Origin: an uncultured Clostridia bacterium
GTDB taxonomy: Bacteria > Bacillota > Clostridia > Lutisporales > Lutisporaceae
NCBI GenBank assembly: GCA_942492835.1
Contig: OW818645.1
Coordinates: 1,346,627 to 1,370,626 of the forward strand
Direction of reading: 5' to 3'
Length of the DNA stretch: 24,000 nucleotides
Below the pieces are notes generated by a model. It did no database searches, had not been told where the DNA came from, and saw only the letters and a program-made list of their open reading frames with translations. Shown piece by piece: positions 136 to 23,759 of the stretch (positions within the stretch are counted from its first letter, which is position 1; each line of letters starts with the position of its first letter). Both the position numbers and the translations under genes were made by a program.

Positions 136-187
136 AGAACCAAAATCAGATATGGATAATTCATGCCTGATTTTGGTTCTGTTTTTT
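136..187. terminator. Hairpin terminator, possibly bidirectional, immediately after the stop of the minus-strand Fe-S gene
   Basis: Perfect 14-bp inverted repeat AGAACCAAAATCAG (136-149) / CTGATTTTGGTTCT (167-180) with a 17-nt loop. GTTTTTT follows on the + strand (181-187). The stop codon of the minus-strand CDS is at 186-188. Confidence 0.6.
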
Positions 188-902
188 AACTTAATCTCTG
201 CGCATCTCCATTCATATCTATTCTCACTTTGTGTAGCTGAATATATTTGCCAGAATTCATTATTGCTTGTTCTGCTGCTCTTACAATACCTCCACAACAT
301 GGCACTTCCATAAATGCTACTGTCACACTCTTAATTTCATTGTTTTTTAAAATTTTGGTAAGCTTCTCTATATAATATTGTATATCATCTAGTTTTGGAC
401 AACCTACTACTACCTCTTTACCTTTTAACAAATCCAAATGATAATTCGGATAAGCAAATGGCACACAGTCTGCTGTTATAAGTAAGTCAGCTCCAGAAAA
501 GTATGATGTCTTCTCTGGTACTAGCATTAATTGAACAGGCCAATGTGACAATTGTGACTTTATTTTTACCTCAATGTCCTCAGATGATACACTAGCTGAA
601 TTTTGATTGTGGTTATTTCTATTTACTTCCATCATTTTGCTTCCTGGACAACCTCCTCCATGCTGAGGAGCATGCTCTTTTACTGCTGTTTCATCAAATT
701 CGTCAGCTTCTCTTTCAGTTATCTCAATTGCTCCTTGAGGACATTCACCAAGACATGCTCCCAAACCATCACAAAGATTTTCTGATAAAAGCTTTGCTTT
801 GCCATCTATTATCTTTATAGCACCTTCAGCGCAGGATGGAACACAAATTCCACAACCATTACACTTATCCTCATTAATATTAACTATCTTTCTTATTGCC
901 AT
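186..902 (-). CDS. 4Fe-4S dicluster (ferredoxin-type) domain protein with a Cys-rich C-terminal domain
   Basis: Two CxxCxxCxxxCP-type motifs: CNGCGICVPSCAEGA and CDGLGACLGECPQGA. The C-terminal part has CVPF, GCPKL and VPCCGG. I trimmed the start to ATG 902 (MAIRKIV...) because GGAGG lies 8 nt upstream. The track's longer ORF to 1043 would run through the purH terminator. Confidence 0.8.
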   Translation of the reverse strand: MAIRKIVNINEDKCNGCGICVPSCAEGAIKIIDGKAKLLSENLCDGLGACLGECPQGAIEITEREADEFDETAVKEHAPQHGGGCPGSKMMEVNRNNHNQNSASVSSEDIEVKIKSQLSHWPVQLMLVPEKTSYFSGADLLITADCVPFAYPNYHLDLLKGKEVVVGCPKLDDIQYYIEKLTKILKNNEIKSVTVAFMEVPCCGGIVRAAEQAIMNSGKYIQLHKVRIDMNGDAQRLS

Positions 903-989
903 TCTTACTACCTCCAAATTTAAATTTATATTAAATGTATTATATTGTTCAATCACAATATCATTATAAAGCCTTTGCGAAGTTCTTGA

Positions 990-1005
990 TGTGATTTTTA
1001 TCACA
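990..1005. promoter_or_regulatory. Perfect TGTGA-N6-TCACA palindrome, a candidate Crp/Fnr-family or Rex-type operator upstream of the Fe-S gene
   Basis: TGTGATTTTTATCACA is a perfect 5+6+5 palindrome. A minus-strand TATAAT lies at 968-963 with no good -35. With that -10 the palindrome centre falls at about -41.5. Confidence 0.45.
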
Positions 1006-1020
1006 AAAATAAAAATATTT

Positions 1021-1051
1021 AAAAATAAAAATGGCAGACACATGGTCTGCC
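1021..1051 (-). terminator. Rho-independent terminator of the pur operon (after purH)
   Basis: 7-bp GC-rich stem GGCAGAC (1033-1039) / GTCTGCC (1045-1051) with a 5-nt loop. On the minus strand it is followed by ATTTTTATTTTT. It starts 24 nt after the purH stop. Confidence 0.8.
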
Positions 1052-1074
1052 ACTATTGATTATATCTTTATGCT

Positions 1075-2616
1075 TTAATGTCTAAAATGCCTCATTCCTG
1101 TAAATATCATGGCAATTCCATTCTTGTTACATTCATCTATAGAATCTTGGTCTCTTAAGGAGCCACCTGGTTGAATTATTGCCCTTATGCCTGCTTTTGC
1201 AGCTACTTGAACTACATCATTAAATGGGAAATAAGCATCTGATGCTAGTACCGCTCCTTTTGCTTTCTCTCCAGCTCTTTCAATACTCATTTCTGTAGGC
1301 CATATCCTATTTACCTGACCGCCGCCTATACCTAATGTTGTATTATCCTTTGCAATTACAATGGCGTTTGATTTTACATGCTTAACAACCTTCCAAGCAA
1401 ACATCAAATCCTTCATATCCTCTTCGCTTGGCTTTTGTTCAGTAACATACTTTATATCCTGCATATCAAAATCCTTTTGATCCTCTTCTTGCAGTAATAT
1501 GCCTCCATTTACCTTCTTTATGTCAAGGTTACCTTGTTCTATATGCTCGATATCTGGAAGCTGCATTATTCTTATATTTTTCTTTCTTTTTAGTATTTCC
1601 AAAGCCTCTTGACTATATGACGGTGCAATTACAATATCAATAAAGATTTTATTTATTTCTTCAGCAGTTTTTACATCTACAGTTCTATTTAATGCAACTA
1701 TTCCCCCAAAAATCGATACAGGATCTGCATTAAATGCTTTTATGTAAGCTTCATATATATCTTCTCCAACGCCTACACCACATGGGGTGGAATGCTTTGA
1801 TGCTACTGCAGCTGGCTTCTTGAATTCCTTTACAGCCTGCACCGCACCGTTAGCATCATTTAAATTACAGAAGGAAAGCTCCTTCCCATGAAGCTGTACC
1901 GCATTGACTAAACCACCCTTTGCAGGCAGCATTTCTTTGTAGTAAGCTCCTGTCTGATGTGGGTTTTCTCCATATCTTAAATCCTGAAGCTTTTCATATG
2001 TCATAGTTACAACCTCTGGATATTGCTCCAGTCCAGCTTTGTCCCATAAATAGTTTGCTATCAAACAGTCATAGCTTGCAGTATGTGAGAATACTTTTGC
2101 TGAAAGCTTAAATTTAGTATCTAAGCATACATCACCTTGTTGTTCCAGCTCGTCAATCACCTTATCATAATCTGATGGATCAATTACTACAGTAACATAT
2201 TTATAATTCTTAGCAGCTGCACGAAGCATGGAAGGTCCGCCGATATCAATGTTTTCTATTGCTTCATCCAAAGCTACATTTTGTTTTTCTATAGTCTTTC
2301 TAAAAGGATATAGATTTACTACTACCAAATCTATAGTTTCAATATTAAATTCCTTCAAGGTGTTCATATGCTCTTGGTTATCTCTCATAGCCAGCAAGCC
2401 TGCATGTATTCTAGGATGAAGTGTCTTTACTCTACCATCCAAACACTCAGGAAAACCTGTGATTTCTGAGATTCCAATAACCTTAATTCCTGCTTCCTCT
2501 AATGCTTTTGCTGTACCTCCAGTAGATATTATCTCTACTCCATTTTTCACTAGTTTTTTTGCAAATTCTACTATCCCTGTCTTATCAGAAACACTTATTA
2601 AAGCTCTTTTTATCAT
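1075..2616 (-). CDS. purH: Bifunctional AICAR formyltransferase / IMP cyclohydrolase
   Basis: 513 aa. N-terminal MGS-like [10 protein letters not shown] motif and typical C-terminus ...[18 protein letters not shown] upstream. Last gene of the pur operon. Confidence 0.95.
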
Positions 2617-2629
2617 GGTATCACTCCTC

Positions 2630-3253
2630 TTATAGAATTTTTACCCGTCTACCCTGTATCTCAAGCTTTTCATCACAAAATAATGCAGCAGCTTTTACGA
2701 TCAACTGATGCTCAACTTCTAGAACCTTAGCTGCTAGGGTTTCTGCAGTATCTTCATAAACTACAGTTACTGACTGCTGTAATATAATAGCCCCAGTATC
2801 CGTTCCCTCGTCAACAAAATGAACAGTTGCGCCGGACACCTTTGCACCATATTCAATAACAGCCTTGTGCACCCGCTCTCCATAAAAACCGTTGCCGCAA
2901 AATGATGGTATAAGAGAAGGATGGATGTTTATAACCCTTCCTTCGTATTCCTTAACAATATCTGTAGGCAGAATGCTCAAATAGCCTGCCAGTATAATAA
3001 GTCCTATATCCCGACTTTTTAGCTGTTTACTCATTTCTGCATCAAAGTTGGTCTTACTGTCAAAGCTTTTTTTGTTGATAGCAATAGCTTCAATATTATG
3101 CTTTTTTGCCCGCTGAAGTCCATATGCATTTTCTTTATCTGATATTACTACAGCAATATTACCATTGATAGTGCCGTTTAAAGCTGCATCAATCAGTGCC
3201 TGTAGGTTACTACCGCTTCCTGATATCAAAACTGCAATATTTAACCTTGACAC
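2630..3253 (-). CDS. purN: Phosphoribosylglycinamide (GAR) formyltransferase
   Basis: 207 aa with [12 protein letters not shown] and [10 protein letters not shown] motifs. GTG start with GGGAGG 9 nt upstream. Overlaps the purM stop by 13 nt. Confidence 0.9.
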
Positions 3254-4293
3254 AGCTCAATGCCTCCCTCGCCTTTTATTACCTCTCCTATTAAATAAGC
3301 CTTTTCATTCATGGATTTAAGCTCTGACATTACTTTGTCTACATCATTTTTGTTCACTACCAACACTAAACCTATTCCCATATTATAGGTATTAAACATT
3401 TCCTTCTGTTCTATATTGCCCAGTCTTTGCATCAATTTGAATATTGGCAATACTGGTACACTAGAGAGGTTTATCTTTGCTTTTAGTCCTTTTGGTATAG
3501 TTCTTGGTATATTCTCTATAAAACCGCCCCCTGTGATGTGGGCAATTCCATTTATGTTTACTCGTTCTATAAGCTCTAGTATAGTTTTTACATAAATTCT
3601 AGTTGGCTTTAGAAGTTCTTCTCCCAATGTGCAGTCAAGTTCTTCAAAGGTTGAATCAACTGTATAATTATTTAGCTCAAAGAATAGCTTCCTTACAAGA
3701 GAGAAGCCATTACTATGAACTCCGCTAGAAGCCAAGCCTATTATTGCATCACCTTCTGATACGTTAGCACCGTTTATAACCTTATCCTTGTCTACAATAC
3801 CTACTGCAAAGCCTGCTACATCATACTCTCCTCTTTTGTAGAAGCCGGGCATCTCTGCTGTTTCTCCGCCTATCAATGCACAACCAGCTTCAACACAGCC
3901 ATCGCATACTCCCTTGACAATATCTGAGGTTGCCTTTGGCTCTAGCACTCCAGTGCCTATATAGTCTAAAAAGTATAGTGGCTTTGCTCCATGACATACT
4001 ATATCATTTACACACATTGCAACACAATCAATACCAATAGAGTCATGTCTACCTGTCATAAAAGCTAATTGCAGTTTTGTTCCTACTCCATCAGTACCAG
4101 ATACCAAAATTGGCTTCTTATATTTCTCTGTATCTATCTCAAAAAAACCTCCGAAGCTGCCTAAACCTCCAATTACGCCTGGTATTTCTGTTTTTTTGGT
4201 ATGTTCCTTTATTAGTCTTACTGTCTCATAACCTGCTTCTACATCTACACCAGCACTTTTATAGGTTACTCTTTGAATTTCTTTATCGCTCAT
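3241..4293 (-). CDS. purM: Phosphoribosylformylglycinamidine cyclo-ligase (AIR synthetase)
   Basis: [10 protein letters not shown] motif and full-length PurM-like sequence. I trimmed the start to ATG 4293 ([17 protein letters not shown]...), 4 nt after the purF stop. The track's extension to 4419 overlaps purF. Confidence 0.92.
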
Positions 4294-4297
4294 TGCT

Positions 4298-5716
4298 CTA
4301 CCTTCTTTCAAATACATGCTTATCGCAGTCTTCTGTAATATCAACAGGATATTTTCCATTGAAGCAAGCTGTACAAAAACCTTTTCCTTTACTGGATACT
4401 GATTCAAGTAAGCCTTCATAGCTTAAATACCCTAGACTGTCTGCATCTATTTTTTCTTTTATCATTTCTAATAAATTACTTGCTCCCATAAGCTCATTGC
4501 TTCTCTGAGTATCAATTCCAAAATAGCAGGAATGTATAACCATCGGAGAACTTACTCTAACATGTACCTCTTTTGCCCCTGCATCTCTTAGAGCTTGGAC
4601 TATTTTCTTACTGGTAGTACCTCTAACAATACTGTCGTCTACCATTACTATCCTTTTACCCTCAATTTGCTTTTTTAGAGGATTAAGCTTTAGTGTTACA
4701 CCCAGCTCTCTAGTTTCTTGAGAGGGTTGAATAAATGTTCTACCTATATATCGATTTTTTATTAGACCTATTGTATAAGGTATCCCTGATTCTTTTGCAT
4801 AGCCAATAGCAGCAGGTGTTCCGGAGTCAGGCACACAGATAACTAAGTCTGCATCTGCAGGCTGTTCCTTAGCAAGTATTCTGCCTGCATTTTCTCTTGA
4901 ACCATATACGCTAATACCGTCAATAATGCTGTCTGGTCGTGCAAAGTATATGTATTCAAATATACAAGAGGCTTTTTTTTCTGGTTCAGTTTGAATACTT
5001 CTTAGTCCTTTTTCGTCAATAATGATTATTTCTCCTGGGTTCACATCTCTTACGAACTTTGCTCCCAGAGTATCTAGTGCGCAACTTTCTGATGCCAGTA
5101 CATATCCTTCTCCCAGCATACCTAGCACCAAAGGACGCAGACCATGCTTATCTCTTACTCCAATAAGCTCATCATTTGTCATGATAACTAGGGAATAAGA
5201 ACCCCTTATTACATCCATGGTTCTTGTTATAGCATCATCAATATTATCCTTATAGTTTTTTGCTATAAGGCAAGCAATTATCTCACTGTCAATAGAGGTG
5301 GTGAAAATCATACCCTGATCCTCCATCTCCCGTCTTAATGCATGTGCATTTACAAGGTTGCCATTATGAGCAAGCGCTATTGTCCCATTCTTGTACTTAA
5401 CTACCAAAGGCTGTGCATTTGTTACAAAGCTTTCTCCTGTAGTGGAGTATCTCACGTGACCTATACAGCTATCACCCTTAAGAAGGTTTAGTATTTTGTC
5501 ATCAAAAACCTCCGAAACCAAACCCATTTCCTTATAGCAGGTTATTATGCCATCATTTTTTACAGCTAGACCTGCACTTTCCTGACCTCTATGTTGAAGC
5601 GCAATCAAGCCGTGGTAGGCAAGTACTGATGTGTTAATATTATTTTTTTCATAAATCCCGATAACACCGCATTCTTCTTTTGGCTTGTCATCATCATATA
5701 AATTTATATTTTGCAT
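4298..5716 (-). CDS. purF: Amidophosphoribosyltransferase, Fe-S type with a short propeptide
   Basis: N-terminal nucleophile context [13 protein letters not shown] loop [12 protein letters not shown], and C-terminal Cys ligands [10 protein letters not shown]. Start chosen at ATG 5716 (MQNINLY...) with GGGAG 7 nt upstream. The track start at 5755 would overlap purC. Confidence 0.92.
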
Positions 5717-5747
5717 CGCTATACTCCCATTTCTGAAATGTAGATTT

Positions 5748-6455
5748 TTATCCACAAATTCTTCCTACTACTTCCATGTAACCTTCTTCTACCTTACCCA
5801 TGTCTCTTCTAAATCTATCCTTATCAAGCTTCTCATGAGTTGTTACATCCCATAATCTGCATGTATCTGGTGATATTTCATCTGCTAAAATGATTTCTCC
5901 ACCAGGTGTTTTACCAAACTCTAGTTTAAAATCAACCAAATCGATGTTTTTTTCCTTCATTACTTCAGTTAGTATCTCATTAATTCTTAGAGAAGCTTTT
6001 TCTATAATTCTTATTTCCTCTTCTGTTGCTAACTCCATAGCTTTTATATGATATTCGTTAATAAATGGATCTCCCAACTCATCATTTTTATAGCAATATT
6101 CTAAAACTGTAGTGTTTAGTTTTGTGCCTTCCTCTATTCCATAACGCTTAGAAAGTGAGCCAGCAGCATAATTTCTTACTAACACCTCTATAGGAACTAT
6201 TTGTACCTTCTTAACCAACATATCTCTATCATTTAATTTTTTGATAAAGTGGGTTTTAATACCTTTAGCTTCAAGAATCTCAAATAGCTTTGTTGATATA
6301 GTGTTGTTCATTATACCCTTGTCAACTATAGTACCCTTTTTTAGTCCATTAAGTGCAGTTGCATCGTCCTTATACTCCACTATATATTGATCAGCTATCT
6401 CTGTCTTATATACCTTCTTTGCTTTTCCTTCATACAACATATCTAATTTATTCAT
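5748..6455 (-). CDS. purC: SAICAR synthetase
   Basis: 235 aa with the [11 protein letters not shown]-terminal motif. SD GAGGAGG upstream. One nucleotide after the purE stop. Confidence 0.93.
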
Positions 6456-6456
6456 A

Positions 6457-6960
6457 TTAAAAAACCTCCTCTTTAATCTTTTTATCTTTTTCTATTACTG
6501 TTCTTTTCATTTCTGCTTTATGCTGTTTTAGCTTTTCCTTTAACTCATCATATCTTAAAGCTAATATTTGAACTGCCAAGATTCCTGCATTTTCAGCTCC
6601 GTCTACCGCTACTGTAGCTACTGGTATTCCAGATGGCATTTGTACAATAGACAAAAGTGAGTCCAATCCATCTAGTGTTGATGATTTAATTGGTATTCCA
6701 ATTACTGGTAATGTGGTAAACGCTGCCAAAACTCCAGGCAGGTGAGCTGCTTTTCCAGCTGCTGCAATAATTACATCAAAGCCTTTTGCTTCTGCATTGC
6801 TAGCATATTCTACTGCTATTTCTGGTGTTCTGTGTGCTGATATGACACTTACCTCATACAGAACTCCAAATTTCTTTAAAACATCTACTGCTTTTCTTAC
6901 AACAGGAAGGTCTGAGTCGCTTCCCATTATTACTGCTACCTTAGGGCTTTTACTTTCCAT
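6457..6960 (-). CDS. purE: PurE: N5-CAIR mutase / AIR carboxylase catalytic subunit
   Basis: 167 aa with [13 protein letters not shown] and SAHRTPE motifs. SD GGAGG 6 nt upstream. Confidence 0.93.
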
Positions 6961-6981
6961 ATGGTGCCTCCTTTTGTGAAC

Positions 6982-9900
6982 TTATAGATAATATTTTACA
7001 CCCGCTTCGAATAACCCTTGGTTCTTTTCTCCTGATATATTTATGGCAACGCTGTTGCCTCTTCTCTCTGAATGTCCCATCTTGCCAAGTATTCTACCAT
7101 CAGGGCTGGTTATTCCTTCTACGTTGTGCATTGAACCATTTGGATTTATACCTACATATTGTGTGGCTATTTGACCATTTTCCAATAGATTATTGTAAAG
7201 CTTGTCACTAACTATAAATCTACCCTCTCCATGAGATACAGGTATACTATGAATATCTCCAGGCTTTGTATTGCTAAACCAAGGTGAAAGGTTTGATACC
7301 ACCTGAGTGGTTGCTATACAGGATATATGTCTTCCACTGGTGTTATAAGTAAGAGTTGGACTATCTTCACCAATATCCTTTATTTCACCATAAGGTACAA
7401 GTCCTAGCTTGATTAATGCCTGAAAACCGTTGCATATACCAAGCATCAGTCCATCTCCATGCTTTAATTTCTCTGTGACAGCTTCTTTTACTCTTGGATT
7501 TCTAAACATTGTAGCTATAAACTTACCTGAACCGTCAGGCTCATCTCCTGCACTAAAGCCTCCAGGTAATGCTATTATTTGTGAGGAGTTTATCCCATTA
7601 ACCAGATTTATTATTGAATCCTCAATATCGTTTTGATTCATATTCCGAATAACTAAAGTCTGCGCAATACCGCCTGCTCTTTCAAAAGCTGCTGCAGTAT
7701 CATACTCACAGTTTGTTCCTGGGAATACCGGTATAAGAATTCTAGGTGCTGCAAGCTTGATACCTGCATGTGTTTTAGCTGTAGAGTTATAGAAGCTGTG
7801 ATTTGTAGCTTTCTCACTCTTTATCTTTGATAGACTGCTTGGGAAAACCTCAGAAAGAGGATTCTGCCATGCATTTAGTGCTTCTTCAAGCTCTATGATT
7901 TCACCATGGAAGCTTATTTCTGGCTTTGACTGTGTTGCTCCTAACACTTTATAGTTTAGTCCTTCTAGTAAGGCTTTAACATCATACTCATTGCTTATTT
8001 CTAAAATCACGTTGCCATAATCATCCGTGAACAGTTCTTCAAGCTTCATGTCTTTTGCAATGTTCATTCCTATCATGTTTCCAAAGCACATTTTGCTTAT
8101 AGCGGCTGCTACTCCTCCATGCTTCACAACTGCTGAAGACAAGATTCTGCCTTCTCCTGTTAGTGAACTTAACTTATCTAAGTTTTTCTTAAGTTGTATG
8201 AAGTCAGGCATTTCTTCTTTATTCCTATCTACACAAAGCATTACAATATTACTTCCGAGTTTTTTAAATTCAGAAGATATAACCTTATTTACATCCATTG
8301 TACCCACTGCAAAGGCTACTAAGGTAGGTGGCACGTTTATATCCTTAAAGGTGCCTGACATGCTGTCTTTTCCACCAATTGCAGGTATTTTAAGCATTGA
8401 CTGTGCATAGAATGCTCCCAGCAATGCACTTAATGGCTTGCCCCATTTTTCTGGCTCCTTGCCAAGCTTTTCAAAGTATTCCTGTAGGGTTAGGCGAAGC
8501 TTGCTGTAATCAGCGCCAAAGGCTGCTGCTTTTACTGCGGCCTCTATAACAGCATACATTCCACCATGAAAAGGACTCCAGGTAGATAGGTATGGGTTAA
8601 AACCATAGGTCATAGTAGCTGCTGTATTTGTATCAGCATTTTGTACTGGAAGCTTCATAACTAATCCATCAGTAGGAGTAGCTTGATACTCTCCGCCAAA
8701 AGGCATTAGTACAGTAGCACTGCCTATACTGCTATCAAAACGCTCTACCAATCCTCTTTGACCACATATATTTAGATCCTTTAGATTTTCTATCCATTTG
8801 CTCTTTAAATCTTTAATATCAGTATTATCCTGCTTTATTTTCTCAAAATAGCTTATCTGCTCTGGTGCTTCTATTGTAGCCTTAGTATTTTGCTTAACTC
8901 CATTTGTATTTAGAAATTCTCTGTTTATATCGACAATAGTCTTTTTCTTCCACTGCAACACAAGTCTTTTTTGCTCAGTAACCTCAGCCACCTTTATTGC
9001 TTCCAGATTTTCATTAGCAGCATAACTTATAAAGGTATCTAAGTCCTTTGAATCAAGCAATACTGCCATTCTTTCCTGTGATTCAGAAATTGCTAGCTCA
9101 GTTCCGTCTAGTCCTTCATATTTTTTAGGAACTGCATCTAAATCTATTACAAGACCGTCGGCGAGTTCTCCTATAGCAACTGCAACCCCTCCTGCTCCGA
9201 AGTCATTGCACTTTTTAATCAGCTTACTAACTTTAGAGTTTCTAAACAACCTCTGTATTTTTCGTTCTACTGGAGGATTGCCCTTTTGCACCTCTGCTCC
9301 ACAGTTTATTATGGATTTATCATCATGCTCTTTAGAAGAGCCTGTAGCACCGCCACAGCCATCCCTTCCAGTTCTGCCGCCAAGCAATACAATTACATCG
9401 CCTACATTATCAGTGTCCCTAACAACATTTTCTCTAGGTGCTGCTCCAAGCACTGCCCCAATCTCCATACGCTTTGCTACATAGTTTGGATGATATATTT
9501 CTGCTACCTGTCCTGTAGCTAAGCCAATTTGGTTTCCATAGGAGCTGTAGCCTGTTGCTGCACCTGTAGTTATCTTCCTTTGAGGAAGCTTTCCTGGTAT
9601 TGTAGCTTCTATAGGTGTTCTTGGATCTGCACTGCCTGTTACCCTCATAGCTCCAAATACGAAAGATCTGCCTGAAAGAGGATCTCTTATTGCTCCTCCC
9701 AGACAAGTTGCCGCTCCGCCGAAGGGTTCTATCTCAGTAGGATGATTGTGAGTTTCGTTTTTGAACATCAACAGCCATTCCTCTGTTTTACCATCCACAT
9801 CAACATCAACAACGACGCTGCATGCGTTTATCTCGTCAGATACCTCTAAATCATTTAACAGTCCCTGCTTTCGCATTTCCTTCATAGCAATAGTGGCTAT

Positions 9901-10731
9901 GTCCATAAGATTTATATCTCTTTTTACATCCTTATAAACATATTTTCTTGCTTGTTTGTATAAATCTAGAGCTTGCTCTACTCCCCTATTGTAAACGCTA
10001 TCTTTTATAGTAATATCTTGAATTTCTGTGTGAAAGGTTGTATGTCTGCAGTGATCAGACCAATATGTGTCTATAACACGTATTTCTGTAATAGATGGGT
10101 CTCTTTTCTCTATATCTCTAAAATATTGTTGGCAAAATGCCAAATCTTCAAGGCTCATTGCCAATCCTAAATCCTGTGCAAAAGCTTTTTGCTGCTCTTT
10201 ATTTAAACTTATAAATCCTCTTATGATTTCTACATCGTTTGCTTCAAAGGACTCCATATCCAGCTTTGAAGGCTTCTCCATAGCTGCTTCCCTTGAGTCG
10301 GACTGATTTATGCAATAAGCTTTTATCTTATTTAGCTCTTCCTTTGATATATCTCCCTTTAGCACAATAAGCTTTGCAGTCTTAACAATAGCATGTTCCT
10401 TCTGTGTAAGTATCTGTATACACTGAGTAGCTGAATCAGCTCGTTGATCATACTGTCCTGGGAGGTACTCAATAGCAAATAGCTTCTCGTCATTTCCTAT
10501 AGCTAATTCCTCATTATATACCATATCTACATTGGTCTCAGAGAAAATAAGCTTGCTAGCTTCCTTGTATTCCTCATTACTTAGTCCTTCGACATCATAA
10601 CGATTAATAATTCTTACTTCTTTAATACCCTTAACCAAAAGGTTTTCCTTAACTTCGTGGTATAAGTTCTTCGCTTCTGCGGCATATTCCTGTTTCTTCT
10701 CTACATATATTCTTCTGACTTTATTTTCCAT
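6982..10731 (-). CDS. purL: Phosphoribosylformylglycinamidine (FGAM) synthase, single-chain large form
   Basis: ~1249 aa. SDHCRHTTF motif in the synthetase part. C-terminal glutaminase has the GICNGFQ nucleophile elbow and GHSERRG. Start set at ATG 10731 (MENKVRR...), about 8 nt after AGGAGGGG. The track start at 10740 is a GTG inside the SD. Confidence 0.93.
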   Translation of the reverse strand: MENKVRRIYVEKKQEYAAEAKNLYHEVKENLLVKGIKEVRIINRYDVEGLSNEEYKEASKLIFSETNVDMVYNEELAIGNDEKLFAIEYLPGQYDQRADSATQCIQILTQKEHAIVKTAKLIVLKGDISKEELNKIKAYCINQSDSREAAMEKPSKLDMESFEANDVEIIRGFISLNKEQQKAFAQDLGLAMSLEDLAFCQQYFRDIEKRDPSITEIRVIDTYWSDHCRHTTFHTEIQDITIKDSVYNRGVEQALDLYKQARKYVYKDVKRDINLMDIATIAMKEMRKQGLLNDLEVSDEINACSVVVDVDVDGKTEEWLLMFKNETHNHPTEIEPFGGAATCLGGAIRDPLSGRSFVFGAMRVTGSADPRTPIEATIPGKLPQRKITTGAATGYSSYGNQIGLATGQVAEIYHPNYVAKRMEIGAVLGAAPRENVVRDTDNVGDVIVLLGGRTGRDGCGGATGSSKEHDDKSIINCGAEVQKGNPPVERKIQRLFRNSKVSKLIKKCNDFGAGGVAVAIGELADGLVIDLDAVPKKYEGLDGTELAISESQERMAVLLDSKDLDTFISYAANENLEAIKVAEVTEQKRLVLQWKKKTIVDINREFLNTNGVKQNTKATIEAPEQISYFEKIKQDNTDIKDLKSKWIENLKDLNICGQRGLVERFDSSIGSATVLMPFGGEYQATPTDGLVMKLPVQNADTNTAATMTYGFNPYLSTWSPFHGGMYAVIEAAVKAAAFGADYSKLRLTLQEYFEKLGKEPEKWGKPLSALLGAFYAQSMLKIPAIGGKDSMSGTFKDINVPPTLVAFAVGTMDVNKVISSEFKKLGSNIVMLCVDRNKEEMPDFIQLKKNLDKLSSLTGEGRILSSAVVKHGGVAAAISKMCFGNMIGMNIAKDMKLEELFTDDYGNVILEISNEYDVKALLEGLNYKVLGATQSKPEISFHGEIIELEEALNAWQNPLSEVFPSSLSKIKSEKATNHSFYNSTAKTHAGIKLAAPRILIPVFPGTNCEYDTAAAFERAGGIAQTLVIRNMNQNDIEDSIINLVNGINSSQIIALPGGFSAGDEPDGSGKFIATMFRNPRVKEAVTEKLKHGDGLMLGICNGFQALIKLGLVPYGEIKDIGEDSPTLTYNTSGRHISCIATTQVVSNLSPWFSNTKPGDIHSIPVSHGEGRFIVSDKLYNNLLENGQIATQYVGINPNGSMHNVEGITSPDGRILGKMGHSERRGNSVAINISGEKNQGLFEAGVKYYL

Positions 10732-10751
10732 GGGTTTCACCCCTCCTTGTC

Positions 10752-10780
10752 TTTACAGCATAATTTTAACATAGTATAAT
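10752..10780 (+). promoter_or_regulatory. Sigma-A-type promoter for the LysR-family gene
   Basis: TTTACA (10752-10757), exactly 17 nt, then TATAAT (10775-10780), about 50 nt upstream of ATG 10831. Confidence 0.55.
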
Positions 10781-10790
10781 TGATAATTAT
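10776..10790. promoter_or_regulatory. Candidate LTTR box (T-N11-A interrupted palindrome) in the purL/LysR divergent intergenic region
   Basis: ATAATT-GAT-AATTAT is a perfect interrupted palindrome overlapping the predicted -10 of the LysR gene. AT-rich context raises the chance expectation. Confidence 0.3.
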
Positions 10791-10830
10791 AATTAATATT
10801 TTTAATACTTATTATAAGGAGTGCTTATCA

Positions 10831-11715
10831 ATGGATATTAATTTTGAGCTTTATAAGGTCTTCTATTTTGTAGCTTATAAAAAAAGCTTTTCAGCTGCTG
10901 CCAATAAGCTGTTTATCTCTCAATCCGCAGTCAGTCAATCCATAAGACAGCTAGAGCAAAAGCTTGGCTGTGCATTGTTCTTCCGAAATACAAAAAAGGT
11001 TAGACTGACCCATGAAGGACAGGCTCTGTTTACCTATATTGAACAAGCCTTTAACTTTATAAAGACCGGAGAAAAGAGATTAGAGGATATGAATTCCCTT
11101 GTTTCCGGAGAAATAAAGATTGGTGCCAGTGATACTATATGTAAATACTATCTTATGTCATATTTTAAGCGTTTCAACGAGAAATATCCGGGTATTAAAA
11201 TAAAAGTGACAAACAGAACCTCTCCAAAATGCATCGAACTGCTCAAAAATGGCAGTGTGGATTTTAGTGTAATAAACATCCCCGAAAATACTGATTTTCC
11301 TCAATTAGAGTTCAAAAAAAGCAGAGCAGTAAAGGATGTTTTTATTGTAGGCAGTAATTATTCACACTTGAAGGATAAGCATTTATCTCTAAAGGATTTA
11401 GAACAACTACCCTTACTGGTGCTTGAAAAAAACACTATAACCAGAGATTACTTTGATAGTATTATGAATAGCAATGAAATAAATATAACCCCTGATGTAG
11501 AGTCAGGAAGTATAGACGTATTAATCGATATGGCAAAAATCGGTCTTGGTGTAGCATTTGTGCCTGATGTATGTGTAGAGACTGCTGTTTTGCGAGGTGA
11601 AGTTCATATACTGAATTTGAAGGAAAATGTGGCTGAAAGATATATGGGAGTAGTGACTCATAAAAACTTTCCTCTATCTATCGCAGCAGTTAAGTTTTTA
11701 GAGATGCTTATATAA
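10831..11715 (+). CDS. LysR-family transcriptional regulator
   Basis: N-terminal wHTH FSAAANKLFISQSAVSQSIRQLEQKLG, then a periplasmic-binding-fold effector domain. Start set at ATG 10831 (MDINFELYKVF...) with AAGGAG 8 nt upstream. Confidence 0.9.
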   Translation: MDINFELYKVFYFVAYKKSFSAAANKLFISQSAVSQSIRQLEQKLGCALFFRNTKKVRLTHEGQALFTYIEQAFNFIKTGEKRLEDMNSLVSGEIKIGASDTICKYYLMSYFKRFNEKYPGIKIKVTNRTSPKCIELLKNGSVDFSVINIPENTDFPQLEFKKSRAVKDVFIVGSNYSHLKDKHLSLKDLEQLPLLVLEKNTITRDYFDSIMNSNEINITPDVESGSIDVLIDMAKIGLGVAFVPDVCVETAVLRGEVHILNLKENVAERYMGVVTHKNFPLSIAAVKFLEMLI

Positions 11716-11735
11716 ATTTTATAGAGTTAAAAAAT

Positions 11736-11763
11736 AAATGGTAATACCAAGGTATTACCATTT
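11736..11763. terminator. Shared hairpin between the convergent LysR and purD-like genes
   Basis: Perfect 13-bp arms AAATGGTAATACC / GGTATTACCATTT. On the minus strand it is followed by ATTTTTT. Confidence 0.6.
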
Positions 11764-11772
11764 AAATAACTT

Positions 11773-13110
11773 TTATAGATATTTCGCCATTTCAGCCAAT
11801 TTCTCTTTACTTCCTATATCATTTCTCCAGTCTAAATCTCCTATGATGCATTTCTTTACAAGCTCATAGACTTTATTTCTGATATCTTCTAAGCTATTAC
11901 CTGCCATTACTACAGCCACTAGTCTAGAAGTACCTACTGATAAATATTTGCCATCTTCTGCCTTTATACAAGAACCAAAAAAGACATTAGCACCATGGTT
12001 TTGTATTTCGTCTATGTTTACACCAAATTCTACCTGAGCTTTTGATGTACTTGAAGGATAATCTTTAGAAACTGCATAAACAACAATTGATGCTTCTTTC
12101 TTAAATTTACATACTTCTTGCGATAGGCTTCCATTAATGCAAGCTTCAATTAAATCTATAAATGGTGTTTCTAATACTGCCAGTACATTCATAACCTCTG
12201 GATCTCCAAACCTTGCATTAAATTCCATTAACCTTAGCGAACCATCTTTTAGCTTGAAGAACCCTCCATTTAGTACACCGTTAAATATAATACCATTTTT
12301 GTTCAGTTCATTTAATACTTTCTGCATCAATTCCTGACACGCATCTAGTTCATTCTGTGAAAGACAAGGCAAACGTCCTGTGTTTTGAGTGAAGCAGCCC
12401 ATACCTCCCGTACCAGGTCCTTCATCTCCATCAAATCGATATGCATAATCATATGTAACAGGTGCTACTACTATTTTATGTCCATCAGTAATACCCATTA
12501 TTGTAAATTCAAAGCCCTCAATCTTTTCTTCCAGCAAGACATTTCCACCATCTTTTAGTATAGCTTCTGCATATTGATATGCCTCATCTACACTTTTTAG
12601 ATGCTCTCCCATTACCTTTACGCCTTTTCCTCCAGTTAGTCCGTCTGGTTTAACCACCATTTCTCGCCCAACAAATTTGTCAAAGCCTTGTTTAAGCTCA
12701 TCAACTGAATTGATAACAGCATGTTTAGGGTTATATGAAGGATCAACTTCGTTTACCACATTTCGTGCATAAGTCTTACTCCACTCAATCTTTGCACCTT
12801 CCTTTGTAGCACCGAAGGTTGGTATAGAAGCTTCTCGCAAGCAATCTACCACACCTGCTTCAAGTATTGCATCACTACTTACTATAGCAATATCTATCTT
12901 CTGTTCAACTGCGAACCTGCTAACTAATAGACCGTCCTTTTGATTTCCTACAATATACTTACCGCCTGTTTGGTTAACAATTGAGGTTATAGTTGGATTT
13001 TCATGGGATAAAACAGCGTATACTATACAACCATTCTGCATTAAACTATATGCCATAGTAGCCTCTCTACAGTTATTCCCGACTACTAAACATTTCTTAT
13101 TATTCATCAT
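11773..13110 (-). CDS. purD: Phosphoribosylamine--glycine ligase family ATP-grasp enzyme with a divergent N-terminal motif
   Basis: PurD-like blocks: FGATKEGAKIEWSKTYA, VVKPDGLTGGKGV, GPGTGGMG and EFNARFGDPE. GGGAGGA SD. Two adjacent ATGs at 13110 and 13107, the second with better spacing. The usual GSGGREHA is replaced by GNNCREAT. Confidence 0.75.
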   Translation of the reverse strand: MMNNKKCLVVGNNCREATMAYSLMQNGCIVYAVLSHENPTITSIVNQTGGKYIVGNQKDGLLVSRFAVEQKIDIAIVSSDAILEAGVVDCLREASIPTFGATKEGAKIEWSKTYARNVVNEVDPSYNPKHAVINSVDELKQGFDKFVGREMVVKPDGLTGGKGVKVMGEHLKSVDEAYQYAEAILKDGGNVLLEEKIEGFEFTIMGITDGHKIVVAPVTYDYAYRFDGDEGPGTGGMGCFTQNTGRLPCLSQNELDACQELMQKVLNELNKNGIIFNGVLNGGFFKLKDGSLRLMEFNARFGDPEVMNVLAVLETPFIDLIEACINGSLSQEVCKFKKEASIVVYAVSKDYPSSTSKAQVEFGVNIDEIQNHGANVFFGSCIKAEDGKYLSVGTSRLVAVVMAGNSLEDIRNKVYELVKKCIIGDLDWRNDIGSKEKLAEMAKYL

Positions 13111-13240: not shown

Positions 13241-13284
13241 AAAAACAACCCAAAAGGGAATATATGTATGATATATTCCCTTTT
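13241..13284 (-). terminator. Rho-independent terminator after fni
   Basis: Perfect 14-bp stem AAAAGGGAATATAT (13252-13265) / ATATATTCCCTTTT (13271-13284) with a 5-nt loop. On the minus strand it is followed by GGGTTGTTTTT. It begins 8 nt after the fni stop. Confidence 0.8.
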
Positions 13285-13291
13285 ATAATCT

Positions 13292-14338
13292 TTACAAAAA
13301 CTTCTGTTTGTAGAGTTGGTATAGCTCACCCTTTAATTGATAAGGCGTTTTTGCGAGTTTTTCAACATTTTGTGCCCCTAATAGCAGCATAAAAACCTTA
13401 ACCTCATATTTTATCTTCGAAATAGTAGCTGTTGCAGCTTCAAATCCATTATCAAGCAGTTCTCTTAGTATTAAACCACTTATACCCGATATAGCTGCAC
13501 CCATACACATTGCTTTAACCACTTCCTCAGCTTTTGTTATGCCTCCACTGCAAATTATTTTCATATTTGATGAGGATTTCCTACATTCTAAAAGGCTAAG
13601 TGCGGTAGGTATACCCCATTGCTTCAAAAATGAATAGTCATTTTCTTTGTTACGCCCAGCTTCAATGGCTATAAAATTTGTTCCGCCCTTACCTCCCACG
13701 TCAATATATTCCACGCCAACCTGATGTAGCTTCCTGGCAACTTCATATGAAATCCCGAAGCCCACCTCTTTCACGATTACAGGAATCTTAGTCTGTTTGA
13801 CTATTTGAGTTATGTTTGCCAAAGTACCCTTAAAGTGCCTTTCGCCTTCCTGCATACATATCTCTTGTGGAGTATTTAGGTGCAGCTGCAACGCATCTGC
13901 TTGTATCATATCAATAGCCCTGCAAGCATCCTCATAACTATTATTAGCACCTATATTGGCTATTACTATTCCTTCTTTGTTTATTTCTCTTACGATTTTA
14001 AAGCTATTCTCAGCCTGCTTATTCTGTATTGCTATAGTCTGGGAACCTACTGCTATAGGTATATTAAAGTCTCGGGCTAGGATAGCTAATTTTTCGTTTA
14101 TCTCTGCTGTGTAATCCGTGCCTCCTGTAACTGCATTAATCATAATAGGCAGGTCAATTGATTTATTCAAAAATATATGGCTGGTACTTATTTCCTCAAA
14201 GTCAATCTCAGGCAAAGCATTATTCTGTAATACAATATCACAAAACAAATTATGGTTTTCATTTGGATGTTGAAGAAACATATTTATATGCTCATCCTTT
14301 CGAGATGCCCTTATGTCATTTTTTTCATCATTATTCAT
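13292..14338 (-). CDS. fni: Type 2 (FMN-dependent) isopentenyl-diphosphate delta-isomerase
   Basis: SRKDEHI near the N-terminus, then TIM-barrel FMN enzyme motifs VKEVGFGIS, GGKGGTNF and SGGI. Start set at ATG 14338 (MNNDEKN...). The track start at 14380 is a TTG with no SD. Confidence 0.85.
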   Translation of the reverse strand: MNNDEKNDIRASRKDEHINMFLQHPNENHNLFCDIVLQNNALPEIDFEEISTSHIFLNKSIDLPIMINAVTGGTDYTAEINEKLAILARDFNIPIAVGSQTIAIQNKQAENSFKIVREINKEGIVIANIGANNSYEDACRAIDMIQADALQLHLNTPQEICMQEGERHFKGTLANITQIVKQTKIPVIVKEVGFGISYEVARKLHQVGVEYIDVGGKGGTNFIAIEAGRNKENDYSFLKQWGIPTALSLLECRKSSSNMKIICSGGITKAEEVVKAMCMGAAISGISGLILRELLDNGFEAATATISKIKYEVKVFMLLLGAQNVEKLAKTPYQLKGELYQLYKQKFL

Positions 14339-14448: not shown

Positions 14449-14580
14449 TTACCCTTTTCTCAACTTTTCTGGAAACTTAGGTTGGTGCATCCATATATAA
14501 GAATTAGTATTCGCATCTGCATTAGCAAGCAATAATGCGAGTGCAGCAATAAGGCTTAATATTATTTCTTCAAATTTCAT
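14449..14580 (-). CDS. agrD: AgrD-family cyclic autoinducing-peptide precursor (43 aa), not in the ORF track
   Basis: Hand translation: MKFEEIILSLIAALALLLANADANTNSYIWMHQPKFPEKLRKG*. The ATG overlaps the agrB TGA stop (ATGA at 14577-14580). It has an amphipathic N-terminal leader, a mid-region and a charged C-terminal tail with HQP...PE.L, as in clostridial AgrDs. It sits immediately downstream of agrB. Confidence 0.8.
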   Translation of the reverse strand: MKFEEIILSLIAALALLLANADANTNSYIWMHQPKFPEKLRKG

Positions 14581-15191
14581 TGTAGTCCCCCCCTCTCATC
14601 CTGTATACAATTTCCTGTAAAAAGTGGAGTTAAGGTAATGCCCTCAAAAATCATTGCAATAGCCGCAATGTTGCAGAAAGTTAATAGCATTGGATTAATA
14701 AAGTATGTAGTAACTATAATGAATATTTCCAGCATCAATACAATTATACTTCTTCTTCTAAAGATTTTTTTCTCATTTCCTACCATTCTTTTATTTGGTG
14801 TATCAACAGGTGCATAAAATAAAACCAACACCCCTGCTAAAAACAATATTATAGTTGTATAAATAAATAGACTACTTATAAAATAATTCTTTACTATCCA
14901 TATTGATAAGATTGTTATCACCGATGTTACTAAAAAACATTTCAAATATGTATCTGTATGAAAACCTCCAGCATTAATTCTTAATAGACTAAAGGCAGTA
15001 ATAAACACTATTGCCTCCATAATCCACCCAAGTATCCATGCAATAATCATTAATCCTGTAAACTTAGCAATTCCAGATATCATCACTTGTAACCCATACA
15101 TATAAACTTCCCAATCATCAAAGGAAATTATTTCTTTGTCTAACAGCCTCTGAGTTATTTTTTTAGATAATCTATCAATCAACCTACCCAC
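14577..15191 (-). CDS. agrB: AgrB-family accessory gene regulator protein B (AgrD-processing membrane peptidase)
   Basis: About 200 aa, polytopic. Catalytic His/Cys context INAGGFHTDTYLKC matches the AgrB family. The start is uncertain: GTG 15191 lies inside the SD-like GAGGG, while in-frame TTG 15182 lies 8 nt after it and is likelier. Confidence 0.88.
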   Translation of the reverse strand: MGRLIDRLSKKITQRLLDKEIISFDDWEVYMYGLQVMISGIAKFTGLMIIAWILGWIMEAIVFITAFSLLRINAGGFHTDTYLKCFLVTSVITILSIWIVKNYFISSLFIYTTIILFLAGVLVLFYAPVDTPNKRMVGNEKKIFRRRSIIVLMLEIFIIVTTYFINPMLLTFCNIAAIAMIFEGITLTPLFTGNCIQDERGGLQ

Positions 15192-15273
15192 CCTCTTCTA
15201 ATAACTAGCAGACTTATATATAACGAAATGTTTATTATTATTAATTCTCTATATAATAAATGGTATATTTTTT

Positions 15274-15306
15274 AAAAAAAGAGTCCACGTTTGGGCTCTT
15301 TTTTTA
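15274..15306 (-). terminator. Terminator between the AgrC-like kinase gene and agrB
   Basis: Stem AGAGTCCA (15280-15287) / TGGGCTCT (15292-15299) with a 4-nt loop. One position is mismatched on the minus-strand RNA. A-run and T-run flank it. It starts 18 nt after the kinase stop. Confidence 0.6.
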
Positions 15307-15323
15307 ACTATAAATATTTAATA

Positions 15324-16646
15324 TTATATCGATATTGGTATAGAAATGTTTGAAATAAAGCACTCTCCATTATCCTCAAAATTTACAATGCCCTCATATT
15401 TTTCAACCGCTTGTCTTATATTGTTCAATCCAAATCCATGATTTGAAGAGTCTTTCTTGCTTGTAAAATTTGCTTTATCATCGCATAGTTCTACTTTAAT
15501 TGCACTTGATTTTGAGTTACATAACTTGATAATAAGGTTATTATTTTGTATATTCATGTCAAATTCAATATATTTGTTTTCCCGTTCTGTTCCCTTACAT
15601 GCTTCCAATGCATTATCTAATAAATTACCAACAATAATTGAAAGATCTATGGATTCTATACCCATTTTTTCTGGTATATCCGCATCAATTTCCATATAGA
15701 TTTTATCTTTTTGTGCCATCATAAGCTTAGTATTTAACAAAACAGTAAGAACAGGATTTCCCGTATCAACAACAATATTGAATTCATTGATCTCATCTAC
15801 CAATCTTTCAATATATTCTTCTGCTTCTTTTCCTTTATTCAATCTTAAAAGTCCATATAAGCAATTTATATGATTGTTAAAATCATGTCTTTGTGAATTC
15901 ATAGATTTAAGCATAGCCTGTATGTTATCTACATAAAACACTTGTCTTTTGTATTCTTGCTCCTTTACTTGCCACTCTGCTTCCTTCTGGCTTTGATTTA
16001 TTATACCTTTAGTTATTCCCAAGATGCATACGCTGAATATAATAGCACCTATAGTTGTGTAAACAATATAACTTGTGCTATTCACTTTTAATGAAAGTAG
16101 CTCTAGATTCTTGTAAAACCACAATGCCATCAGTATTATTATTATATTAAAAACACACACTAGTATAATTTGGTACAAAGCCGTTCTGTTTATGCTCTTC
16201 TTAAATTTTAGTTTAGGTATAAAGTACCATACAATAATAAAATATAATGATTTCGCTATTGAAACTCCAATAATTTTAGGAAGAATTTGAGTATGTATTT
16301 CATTTGGTGTCATTCCAAGTAAATATACAACCAACACCCCGATTCCCTCTGTAACAAACGTTAAGATCATCGCAAGAAATATATACATATAAATGCTGAA
16401 TATGTTCTCTTTAAATATCAGCTTATATAATATTCCTGTAGTTAAAATCATTACCACAAGTCCTACTGCCGCCCCGCTACCAAATATATATCCAATTGCA
16501 GTGTTAATAATTGATTGAGCTATAACTACAAAATAAGTACGCCTCATATCTGAGTTAGCATCCCGTAAAAATCTCTTAACGAAAAATAAAACTAACGCCA
16601 CATCTATTATAGTGGTCAAACATTCCAGTGCCATGTTTAATATCAT
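15324..16646 (-). CDS. AgrC-like (HPK10 family) membrane sensor histidine kinase
   Basis: About 200 aa of multi-TM sensor domain. H-box SQRHDFNNHINCLYGLL, N-box IVGNLLDNALEA and G-box NHGFGLNNIRQ. Start set at ATG 16646 (MILNMALE...) with GGAGGGG 5 nt upstream. The track's 42-codon extension lacks an SD. Confidence 0.88.
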   Translation of the reverse strand: MILNMALECLTTIIDVALVLFFVKRFLRDANSDMRRTYFVVIAQSIINTAIGYIFGSGAAVGLVVMILTTGILYKLIFKENIFSIYMYIFLAMILTFVTEGIGVLVVYLLGMTPNEIHTQILPKIIGVSIAKSLYFIIVWYFIPKLKFKKSINRTALYQIILVCVFNIIIILMALWFYKNLELLSLKVNSTSYIVYTTIGAIIFSVCILGITKGIINQSQKEAEWQVKEQEYKRQVFYVDNIQAMLKSMNSQRHDFNNHINCLYGLLRLNKGKEAEEYIERLVDEINEFNIVVDTGNPVLTVLLNTKLMMAQKDKIYMEIDADIPEKMGIESIDLSIIVGNLLDNALEACKGTERENKYIEFDMNIQNNNLIIKLCNSKSSAIKVELCDDKANFTSKKDSSNHGFGLNNIRQAVEKYEGIVNFEDNGECFISNISIPISI

Positions 16647-17129
16647 GAATACCCCTCCAAAAAATATATTTCTCAATTTCTCAGTACATCTAGTTTTTTT
16701 GTTTACAGGTATTGTTTTATCAATTTCTCTTATATAAATATCATCATTTTTATCTCTATATAGAACACGCAAATTAGTGATATTTGTGTGTTCTGTAAAC
16801 AGCAGAATATATATCAGACTATTTTATAAATGCAGATTGTTTAGTGTGATATATATAACACCTTTGATAATTAATTATGTAAATAGCTCCATATCCAATC
16901 ATCTATCAGCTTGTCCATATTTTCATTAAAATCAAACTAATCTTTCTTAGAATACCTGTCTGTAATTTTTTGTATCTGTAATCCATTTAGCTCTTTTTAT
17001 ATATAAAGATACTATGTACAGGATTACATTCATCACAAGCACCTATAATAACTCTACCTCACCACCTCTGCATAAATAATATAATATCCTTTATATGTAA
17101 AACACATTAGTATAGTTTTATAATACTTT

Positions 17130-17278: not shown

Positions 17279-17384
17279 TCGCCTGATTTACAGGTCATGT
17301 ACATTTGCATTTTAGACTATTTATCTTAAATGCAAGTATTTTGTGATTTTTTAATTTTTGTTGAATATTAATATTGCATATATT

Positions 17385-18368
17385 ATGAATACTGGGAAGG
17401 TGATTATTATCAAATTTTATCTATTCTCTAGAACAAGGCTATCTATATTCATTTTGGCTATTTTAGTCATAGCTGTAATTATACTGAAACTGTTATATTC
17501 TAACGCAACAGACTCACATACAGCAAAACTTGTTATGGGAGCAACTCTTCTAAGTCAAAACCATGAACTTGAGTCAAATGCTAAAGCCCCTTTAAAACTA
17601 GATATCAAAAAGTATTTTCGGCCCTCAAAGCTGCCTATATTAAACACTCAAGTTATAAGTGGTGAACCTATTGACACCTACAAAATACAAAGTCCCGAAG
17701 AATCCATAATATACTACTTTAGCTTCCTTAGAGAGGCAGAAAATCTTACAAAGGATAAATCAGGAGGCTGTGGTTCTGTAGGCTCTGCAAAGGCTCCATT
17801 CCCTATAGCCTACAACTTTCTGACTCCTGAGTACCAAAAGAAAGTAAATTTCAATCAATATCTGAAGTCCTTTGAAGGTATTGGACACACCAACCTTATC
17901 AAGTTTAGAAAACTATCACCTGATCTACGTAACCCAAAGGATATGAGATATTTTATTGAAATTGAGACCATAGAAGGTTCTGACAAGGGTGTCACTTATT
18001 TTGCATATTACTATGGATTTATTTATATTCAAAAGCAAGGTGAAAAGTATTTAATATCAGATATGATAATGTATGGAGAAGATTTCTTATGTGCACCTTA
18101 TCATGGATGGTACCATGATGCTGAAAGCAATGTAGCTATTAGATATGGAGATTGGTGCAAACTCATAAAGGAAAAATACCCTGCAAAGCAAGAGGGGTAT
18201 GTAAAACTAATAAGCTTTAAAGGCACTGATGGTAACGACTACATGATTGAGTTTATGCAGCTTACTAATGATACAGATGTGGAGGTAGCTCAGTATAAGA
18301 AAGGGTCTGACGGAAAGTGGCAGGTAATACATCTGAGTCCAGAAAATTGCGTTTCTATGCATCAATAA
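17385..18368 (+). CDS. Hypothetical membrane-anchored protein: one N-terminal TM helix and a ~280-aa extracytoplasmic domain
   Basis: Long ORF with coding-like composition. Hydrophobic segment LSIFILAILVIAVIILKLLY. No motif I can assign. The start is uncertain: ATG 17385 has a weak SD, and the track uses TTG 17358. Confidence 0.65.
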   Translation: MNTGKVIIIKFYLFSRTRLSIFILAILVIAVIILKLLYSNATDSHTAKLVMGATLLSQNHELESNAKAPLKLDIKKYFRPSKLPILNTQVISGEPIDTYKIQSPEESIIYYFSFLREAENLTKDKSGGCGSVGSAKAPFPIAYNFLTPEYQKKVNFNQYLKSFEGIGHTNLIKFRKLSPDLRNPKDMRYFIEIETIEGSDKGVTYFAYYYGFIYIQKQGEKYLISDMIMYGEDFLCAPYHGWYHDAESNVAIRYGDWCKLIKEKYPAKQEGYVKLISFKGTDGNDYMIEFMQLTNDTDVEVAQYKKGSDGKWQVIHLSPENCVSMHQ

Positions 18369-23724: not shown

Positions 23725-23759
23725 AATATCACTCCCAAACATGTGTTCTATTTTATATT

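Follow-up and report, generated by a model that had tools for sequence, protein, structure and literature searches.

The locus described here raises the question of whether a 43-codon open reading frame (ORF), located directly behind agrB in a 24,000-nucleotide stretch of DNA (hereafter the window) from an uncultured member of the Lutisporaceae (order Lutisporales, class Clostridia), encodes the precursor of an autoinducing peptide (AIP), and whether that peptide would be closed through serine rather than cysteine. Read from 14580 to 14449, the ORF translates to MKFEEIILSLIAALALLLANADANTNSYIWMHQPKFPEKLRKG, 43 residues that are free of cysteine. The plus strand of the same interval carries stops throughout and the gene was therefore assigned to the minus strand. 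The original prediction gave the correct coordinates and cysteine-free translation but left the strand unnamed; it also described the gene as hidden, and while the ORF is real, it was hidden only by the 60-residue threshold of the ORF track consulted. The proposed translational coupling to agrB is borne out by an ATGA at 14577–14580, in which the stop of the upstream ORF, identified as AgrB by its match to PF04647, overlaps the agrD start. Length alone is not significant, since 56 ORFs of at least 30 residues were listed in 9 kb of this AT-rich DNA. The search with an AgrD-family model that had been suggested as a check returned TIGR04223 at 47 bits versus a cutoff of 19 (E 1.9e-12), with residues 7–42 on profile positions 3–38 of 38. 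A Pfam search with the 43-residue peptide found no AgrD match at E values up to 1, and its NDUF_C2 match (E 0.066) was rejected as spurious, the NCBIfam model being decisive.

The same small ORF occurs in the same place in the two nearest public genomes, an 'Eubacteriales' MAG (L001, AgrB 92% identical, AgrD ...ANADANINSYLWMHQPKFPEKLRKG) and a 'Lutisporaceae' MAG (L002, AgrB 77% identical, AgrD ...ANTGANNNSYLWIHQPKFPEKLRR), neither of which is labelled Clostridium, and more than 35 AgrD homologues have a core and tail that align without gaps. Based on the Nei-Gojobori method, the dN/dS of agrD was 0.09 versus L001 (five synonymous and two non-synonymous differences), 0.25 versus L002, and 0.14–0.17 versus more distant loci for which synonymous sites are close to saturation. 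The TIGR04223 match, the Shine-Dalgarno-like run ahead of the start codon, the low dN/dS and the homologues together place the ORF beyond chance, and it is a genuine agrD under purifying selection. An identical sequence already exists in the protein collection as the product of a called gene, and several relatives are annotated as 'cyclic lactone autoinducer peptide'.

Table 1 Features of the agr block and its surroundings in the window
Feature	Position	Strand	Basis and remarks
agrA (LytTR response regulator) pseudogene remnant	16644..16996	-	tblastn of L002, L005 and L009 AgrA versus the window
agrC-type sensor histidine kinase, 440 aa	15324..16646	-	ATG at 16646, Shine-Dalgarno GGAGGGG upstream; HATPase_c_5 5.5e-23, SPOB_a 7.7e-13
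agrC-agrB intergenic region	15192..15323	-	Weak hairpin and T-run after agrC; single degenerate half-site TTATTATAT
agrB, membrane endopeptidase/cyclase, 204 aa	14577..15191	-	PF04647, E 1.9e-38
Shine-Dalgarno-like purine-rich run GAGAGGGGGGG	14587..14597	-	Within the agrB 3' end, 6 nt 5' of the agrD ATG; read from sequence
agrD	14449..14580	-	43 codons and stop; ORF listing, TIGR04223, homologue alignment, dN/dS
Predicted ring S27-Y-I-W-M31	14488..14502	-	Codons TCT TAT ATA TGG ATG
fni, type 2 isopentenyl-diphosphate isomerase	13292..14338	-	110 nt 3' of agrD; TIGR02151, 372 bits versus cutoff 281
Purine-biosynthesis region	186..13110		purH, purN, purM, purF, purC, purE, purL, divergent LysR regulator, purD; embeds the agr block

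The AgrD peptide comprises a hydrophobic leader (approximately M1–A23), a predicted exocyclic tail (N24–N26), the predicted ring (S27–M31), and a charged C-terminal tail, HQPKFPEKLRKG, attributed to AgrB recognition (H32–G43). Relatives were pooled from an exhaustive HMMER search, a profile search and cluster members, giving 38 distinct sequences that all carry the [HY]QP[KR]xP tail; the exhaustive and profile searches were needed because a single-sequence word-index search with AgrD found no relatives beyond the self-match. The alignment is gap-free from the leader 'AN' through the C-terminus, and the position five before [HY]QP, where the original prediction had placed Ser27 on the ring Cys, is occupied by Ser in 16 and by Cys in 22 of the 38 sequences, leaving none with another residue. 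This column stands 10 residues ahead of a conserved Pro in all 38 (S27 and P37 in the window), which we take to be the same spacing as in Staphylococcus aureus AgrD-I (C28 and P38); the HQP...P..L tail type and five-residue ring register are presumably also shared with Clostridium perfringens AgrD. Conservation of Ser among close homologues, on which the original prediction was said to depend, was found in the nearest relatives (L001, L002, P0003, P0009-11, P0013 and P0035). Two other residues were considered as nucleophile and rejected, T25 being unconserved (I in L001, N in L002) and the Y28 column containing Y, W, F, V, I, T or S among relatives. The window AgrD thus has the make-up of a lactone-type AIP, with Ser at the nucleophile position and no other thiol or conserved hydroxyl in the core.

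Orthologous loci add a second line of evidence. The L010 locus has the window gene order agrC-agrB-agrD-fni-purD-lysR-purL and an AgrB 72% identical to that of the window, but its AgrD (...GTNCYLWAHQPKFPEKLRR) has the ring CYLWA, with TGT at the TCT codon of the window, a single transversion apart. The serine codon is TCT in the window, L001 and L002, whose AgrB sequences are 70–74% identical to that of L010. A second syntenic pair consists of L005 (SYIWI, TCC) and L009 (CYLWI, TGT), with 68% identical AgrB and 79% identical AgrC. Both Cys-type orthologues, L010 and L009, resemble the window in the order agrC-agrB-agrD-fni beside pur genes and in a nearly identical AgrD tail, and differ in using TGT where Ser-type loci have TCT or TCC. 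Further Ser/Cys pairs were P0008 (SWVLL) with P0021 (CWGLL), and P0014 (SYVIY) with P0037 (CYVIY). A repeated exchange of Ser and Cys at one column is the pattern expected if both act as nucleophile. Given a column restricted to Ser or Cys in 38/38 relatives, and syntenic orthologues that swap TCT or TCC for TGT, Ser27 occupies the ring-nucleophile position, and closure of the ring through serine rather than the usual cysteine is most likely. The five-residue S-Y-I-W-M lactone remains the best prediction, as originally put forward, based on the conservation of the Ser27 column and on a register equal to that of the lactone AIP of C. thermocellum.

The enzyme expected to process the peptide is encoded immediately upstream. 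The AgrB motif R..GG.H-x6-C (GGFHTDTYLKC in the window) is invariant in 8/8 AgrB sequences, from six loci plus L009 and L010, and we take its His and Cys to correspond to the essential H77 and C84 of S. aureus AgrB, residue numbers that reportedly originate from Qiu et al. in 2005. A PDB sequence search with AgrB gave no match, and the catalytic residues were thus checked by motif conservation. The agrB gene has a dN/dS of 0.42–0.49 (0.49 versus L001), above that of neighbouring genes. By analogy with known systems, AgrB would use its conserved His/Cys pair to cut after Met31 and keep the peptide as an acyl-enzyme, which the O-gamma hydroxyl of Ser27 would attack to give a five-residue ester ring, S-Y-I-W-M, with a lactone replacing the thiolactone. 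A leader peptidase would trim the N-terminal leader, most likely after A-D-A, giving the octapeptide NTN-cyclo(SYIWM) with a calculated [M+H]+ of 1010.440 (681.307 for tail-free cyclo(SYIWM)). The three-residue tail, NTN, is predicted from the placement of small-x-small motifs three residues before the nucleophile, A-D-A in the window and T-G-A, A-G-G or A-A-S in relatives. The adjacent AgrC-type kinase would sense the signal. The sequence comparisons show the gene identity, the register of Ser27, its conservation and purifying selection, whereas the ester linkage, the size of the ring, the N-terminal processing and the route of signalling are inferred by such analogy. Overall, the best explanation, and one that we consider quite probable, is a genuine agrD whose product is made by AgrB into an SYIWM lactone via Ser27 and sensed by AgrC, with the output regulator encoded elsewhere.

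The kinase falls in the AgrC-type membrane histidine kinase class (HPK10, HATPase_c_5), and the staphylococcal AgrC equivalog model matches it weakly, at 61.6 bits, far under its cutoff. Orthologues of 440 residues are present in L001 and L002, and the dN/dS of agrC versus L001 is 0.08 (eight amino acid changes and 24 synonymous changes). A mechanically called 482-residue agrC ORF proved to be an in-frame extension into the last agrA fragment, the real start being the ATG given in Table 1. The agrA gene itself survives as fragments matching residues ~61–76, ~159–194 (with an internal stop) and 207–240 of L002 AgrA, with deletions, and no LytTR domain was detected among the window ORFs of 90 residues or more. 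L001 carries the same agrA remnants, indicating that agrA was lost before it and the window split. The gene has also gone from L003 and L010, while it is intact in L002, L005, L007 and L009 (240 residues in L002, L005 and L009). The loss had been overlooked in the original prediction.

The regulatory sites looked for upstream of agrB were LytTR-type repeats, defined as 9-bp direct repeats with a 12-bp spacer. L002 (3904–3932), L005 (5304–5332; also L006) and L009 (4303–4331) carry 5' of agrB a perfect direct repeat, TATTACAT-N13-TATTACAT, and its 21-bp period gives it the geometry that is classic for LytTR sites. Repeat scans of the four agrA-less loci (window, L001, L003 and L010) found it missing in all four. 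Aligned with L002 and L005, the window and L001 show a deletion of ~33 nt, which removes the second repeat and leaves one degenerate half-site, and in L003 and L010 just 38 nt separate agrC from agrB. Of a complete agr circuit, the locus therefore has AgrC and is missing both an adjacent AgrA and the AgrA-dependent repeat. The loss of agrA and the AgrA box beside an intact, constrained agrCBD is a more unusual feature of the locus than the Ser ring.

With agrA and its box lost, the circuit may have been rewired or may be partly in decay. In the case of decay, agrBD would no longer be expressed or sensed properly, leaving the Ser-type peptide as a relic, as might be suspected from the stops and deletions in the agrA remnants of the window and L001, the deletion of the second repeat, the disappearance of the entire intergenic promoter region from the agrA-less L003 and L010, and the agrB dN/dS of 0.49 versus L001. 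These observations have to be set against the dN/dS values of agrC (0.08) and agrD (0.09), which cover the time after the split of the window and L001 and show both genes to have been strongly constrained since agrA was lost, and against the intact agrC, agrB and agrD ORFs. A system of this kind can also operate without its own regulator, C. perfringens agrBD being functional without a cognate agrCA and signalling through VirSR. We therefore regard decay as unlikely. The loss of regulator and site was apparently coordinated and repeated, going by the loci compared, while agrCBD stayed constrained, and we read it as rewiring, in which AgrC would act on a regulator whose gene lies elsewhere, and agrBD would owe its expression to read-through or to a different promoter. 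An output through a regulator encoded elsewhere is what the loss of both the cognate agrA and the AgrA box implies, and auto-induction of agrBD from its own promoter has probably ceased.

Two further alternatives concern the chemistry of the product rather than the fate of the circuit. One arises from the gene behind agrD, since the type 2 isopentenyl-diphosphate isomerase encoded by fni could supply DMAPP for a ComX-like prenylation of the AIP on Trp30. A terminator scan of the agrD-fni gap found no terminator-like site, the first strong terminator (13251–13285) standing after fni and ahead of purD, so that the minus-strand order is agrA remnant, agrC, agrB, agrD, fni, terminator, purD, and fni may be co-transcribed with agrD. 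A promoter scan of the AT-rich window DNA was uninformative, with 31 sites versus 30 expected by chance. Adjacency of agrD and fni, with no terminator separating them, was found in every Lutisporaceae-like locus examined (L001, L002, L003, L005, L009 and L010), even where AgrB is down to 45–51% identity with that of the window, and the SY[ILMV]W ring of the clade has a conserved Trp. However, no prenyltransferase, ComQ-like or other, occurs among the window genes, many family members lack the Trp, and the lysR and purL neighbours are equally conserved, so that general synteny explains the adjacency; the purine-gene neighbourhood is also kept in the distant relatives L003, L005, L009 and L010. 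The Maledivibacter halophilus locus (L007) moreover has a Peptidase_C70 gene where fni stands elsewhere. A functional link to fni was rejected on these grounds, and prenylation appears extremely improbable. The other alternative is removal of the leader immediately ahead of Ser27, after which an O-to-N acyl shift would produce a tail-free, all-amide cyclo(SYIWM), comparable to the cAIPs of Ruminiclostridium cellulolyticum. As a matter of general chemistry, an O-to-N shift proceeds more slowly than an S-to-N shift. The signal-peptidase-like motifs three residues upstream of Ser/Cys predict a three-residue tail that would block the shift, and the C. thermocellum product, although its AIP is tail-free, was reported as a lactone. 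In its favour, an S-to-N shift has been shown for tail-free clostridial AIPs, with the fate of a tail-free Ser lactone left open (Molloy et al. 2021, PMC8251862). We consider an all-amide ring very unlikely, and the tailed lactone is retained as the predicted product.

Taken together with the Ser/Cys pairs, the agrA losses suggest a broader and more tentative scenario, to which we would give somewhat less than an even chance, in which a Lutisporaceae-like agr lineage underwent repeated switches between Cys and Ser nucleophiles, at least two in orthologous loci and probably at least four across the subfamily, by single-base changes such as TCT to TGT, with parallel loss of agrA and its site and rewiring of AgrC. 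If this is true, and if all forms are processed, thiolactone versus lactone would be a routine axis of pherotype diversification rather than a rare oddity, and one AgrB scaffold, at ~70% identity, would accept either nucleophile. The close Ser/Cys orthologues (AgrB ~70% identical) would provide a natural test set for how AgrB and AgrC deal with ester versus thioester, and for how the stability of the signal bears on specificity.

Serine-closed signals have been described previously, in clostridia among others. Verbeke et al. (2017, PMC5322536) used targeted LC-MS/MS, with a synthetic standard for comparison, to confirm a Ser-lactone AgrD pentapeptide in C. thermocellum culture supernatant, the only clostridial lactone AIP known to be published, which refutes the statement in the original prediction that characterised clostridial AIPs are thiolactones. 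Its precursor, Clo1313_2818 of C. (Acetivibrio) thermocellum, likewise comes from the Clostridia and has a Ser nucleophile, a five-residue ring and a conserved Pro 10 residues after the Ser. The register is equal (S25/F29/Y30/P35 versus S27/M31/H32/P37 in the window), a comparison of residue numbering rather than of ring sequences (PMC5322536), and an aromatic or His residue directly follows the ring in both (Y30 and H32, respectively). The two differ in that the C. thermocellum agrD is an orphan, lacking both agrB and agrC next to it, and its AIP is predicted to be tail-free, whereas in the window agrD is coupled to both genes and the predicted AIP has a three-residue tail. Serine cyclisation has already been noted as rare (Molloy et al. 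2021, PMC8251862).

The original prediction pointed to Ser-lactone AIPs in the Staphylococcus intermedius group, and these are classical lactones, as is E. faecalis GBAP. According to PMC3673130, which cites Ji et al. 2005, Ser in place of Cys in the AgrD of S. intermedius/pseudintermedius gives a cyclic lactone, and substituting Cys for this Ser lowered RNAIII expression. This AIP is likewise an AgrB-processed Ser lactone with an exocyclic tail, but it is encoded in an agrBDCA operon with intact AgrA and P2/P3 autoinduction, and its core and tail are unrelated to those of the window, where the order is (agrA)-agrC-agrB-agrD with agrA lost. [quoted passage not shown] C. perfringens AgrD resembles the window in that agrBD lacks a cognate adjacent AgrA, and differs in its Cys nucleophile (thiolactone), the lack of an adjacent agrC and its signalling via VirSR; its CLWFT peptide appears in PMC7300355 and PMC12312760. 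In a 2025 genome-mining paper, 'thiolactone or lactone ... between Cysteine or Serine' is taken as a matter of routine.

The novelty originally claimed for the locus is consequently overstated, given Ser-lactone AIPs in C. thermocellum, S. intermedius and E. faecalis and an NCBI name for the TIGR04223 family, 'cyclic lactone autoinducer peptide', that already says lactone. With 16 of 38 relatives carrying it, Ser is not rare within the subfamily. The window AgrD is a new example of a known family of serine-closed signals rather than a new kind, and the current picture, in which AgrD Ser cyclisation is documented and reflected in the database name, is unchanged. Chemical confirmation would add to the few cases known a lactone AIP whose AgrB/AgrC pair is both complete and adjacent; the clostridial example in the literature is an orphan agrD without known partners.

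Several additional observations were made in the course of the analysis. The Ser-type P0014 from Maledivibacter halophilus (L007, 6001–6129) has the core GTCSYVIY, compared with GTCCYVIY in P0037–P0039 of the same 90%-identity cluster, and retains a Cys one residue upstream of the Ser, so that either a five-residue lactone or a six-residue thiolactone is possible. The exhaustive search with the 43-residue peptide also returned P0002/P0007, comprising a 1082-residue protein (E 1.1e-14, matched stretch unreported) and a 386-residue protein (five short stretches); these matches probably reflect compositional or repeat similarity to the Ala/Leu-rich leader. Elsewhere in the window, two ORFs, at 17358–18368 on the plus strand (336 residues) and 22105–23742 on the minus strand (545 residues), lacked a significant match in Pfam or NCBIfam. 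The former is divergently oriented upstream of the agr block and has a hydrophobic start.
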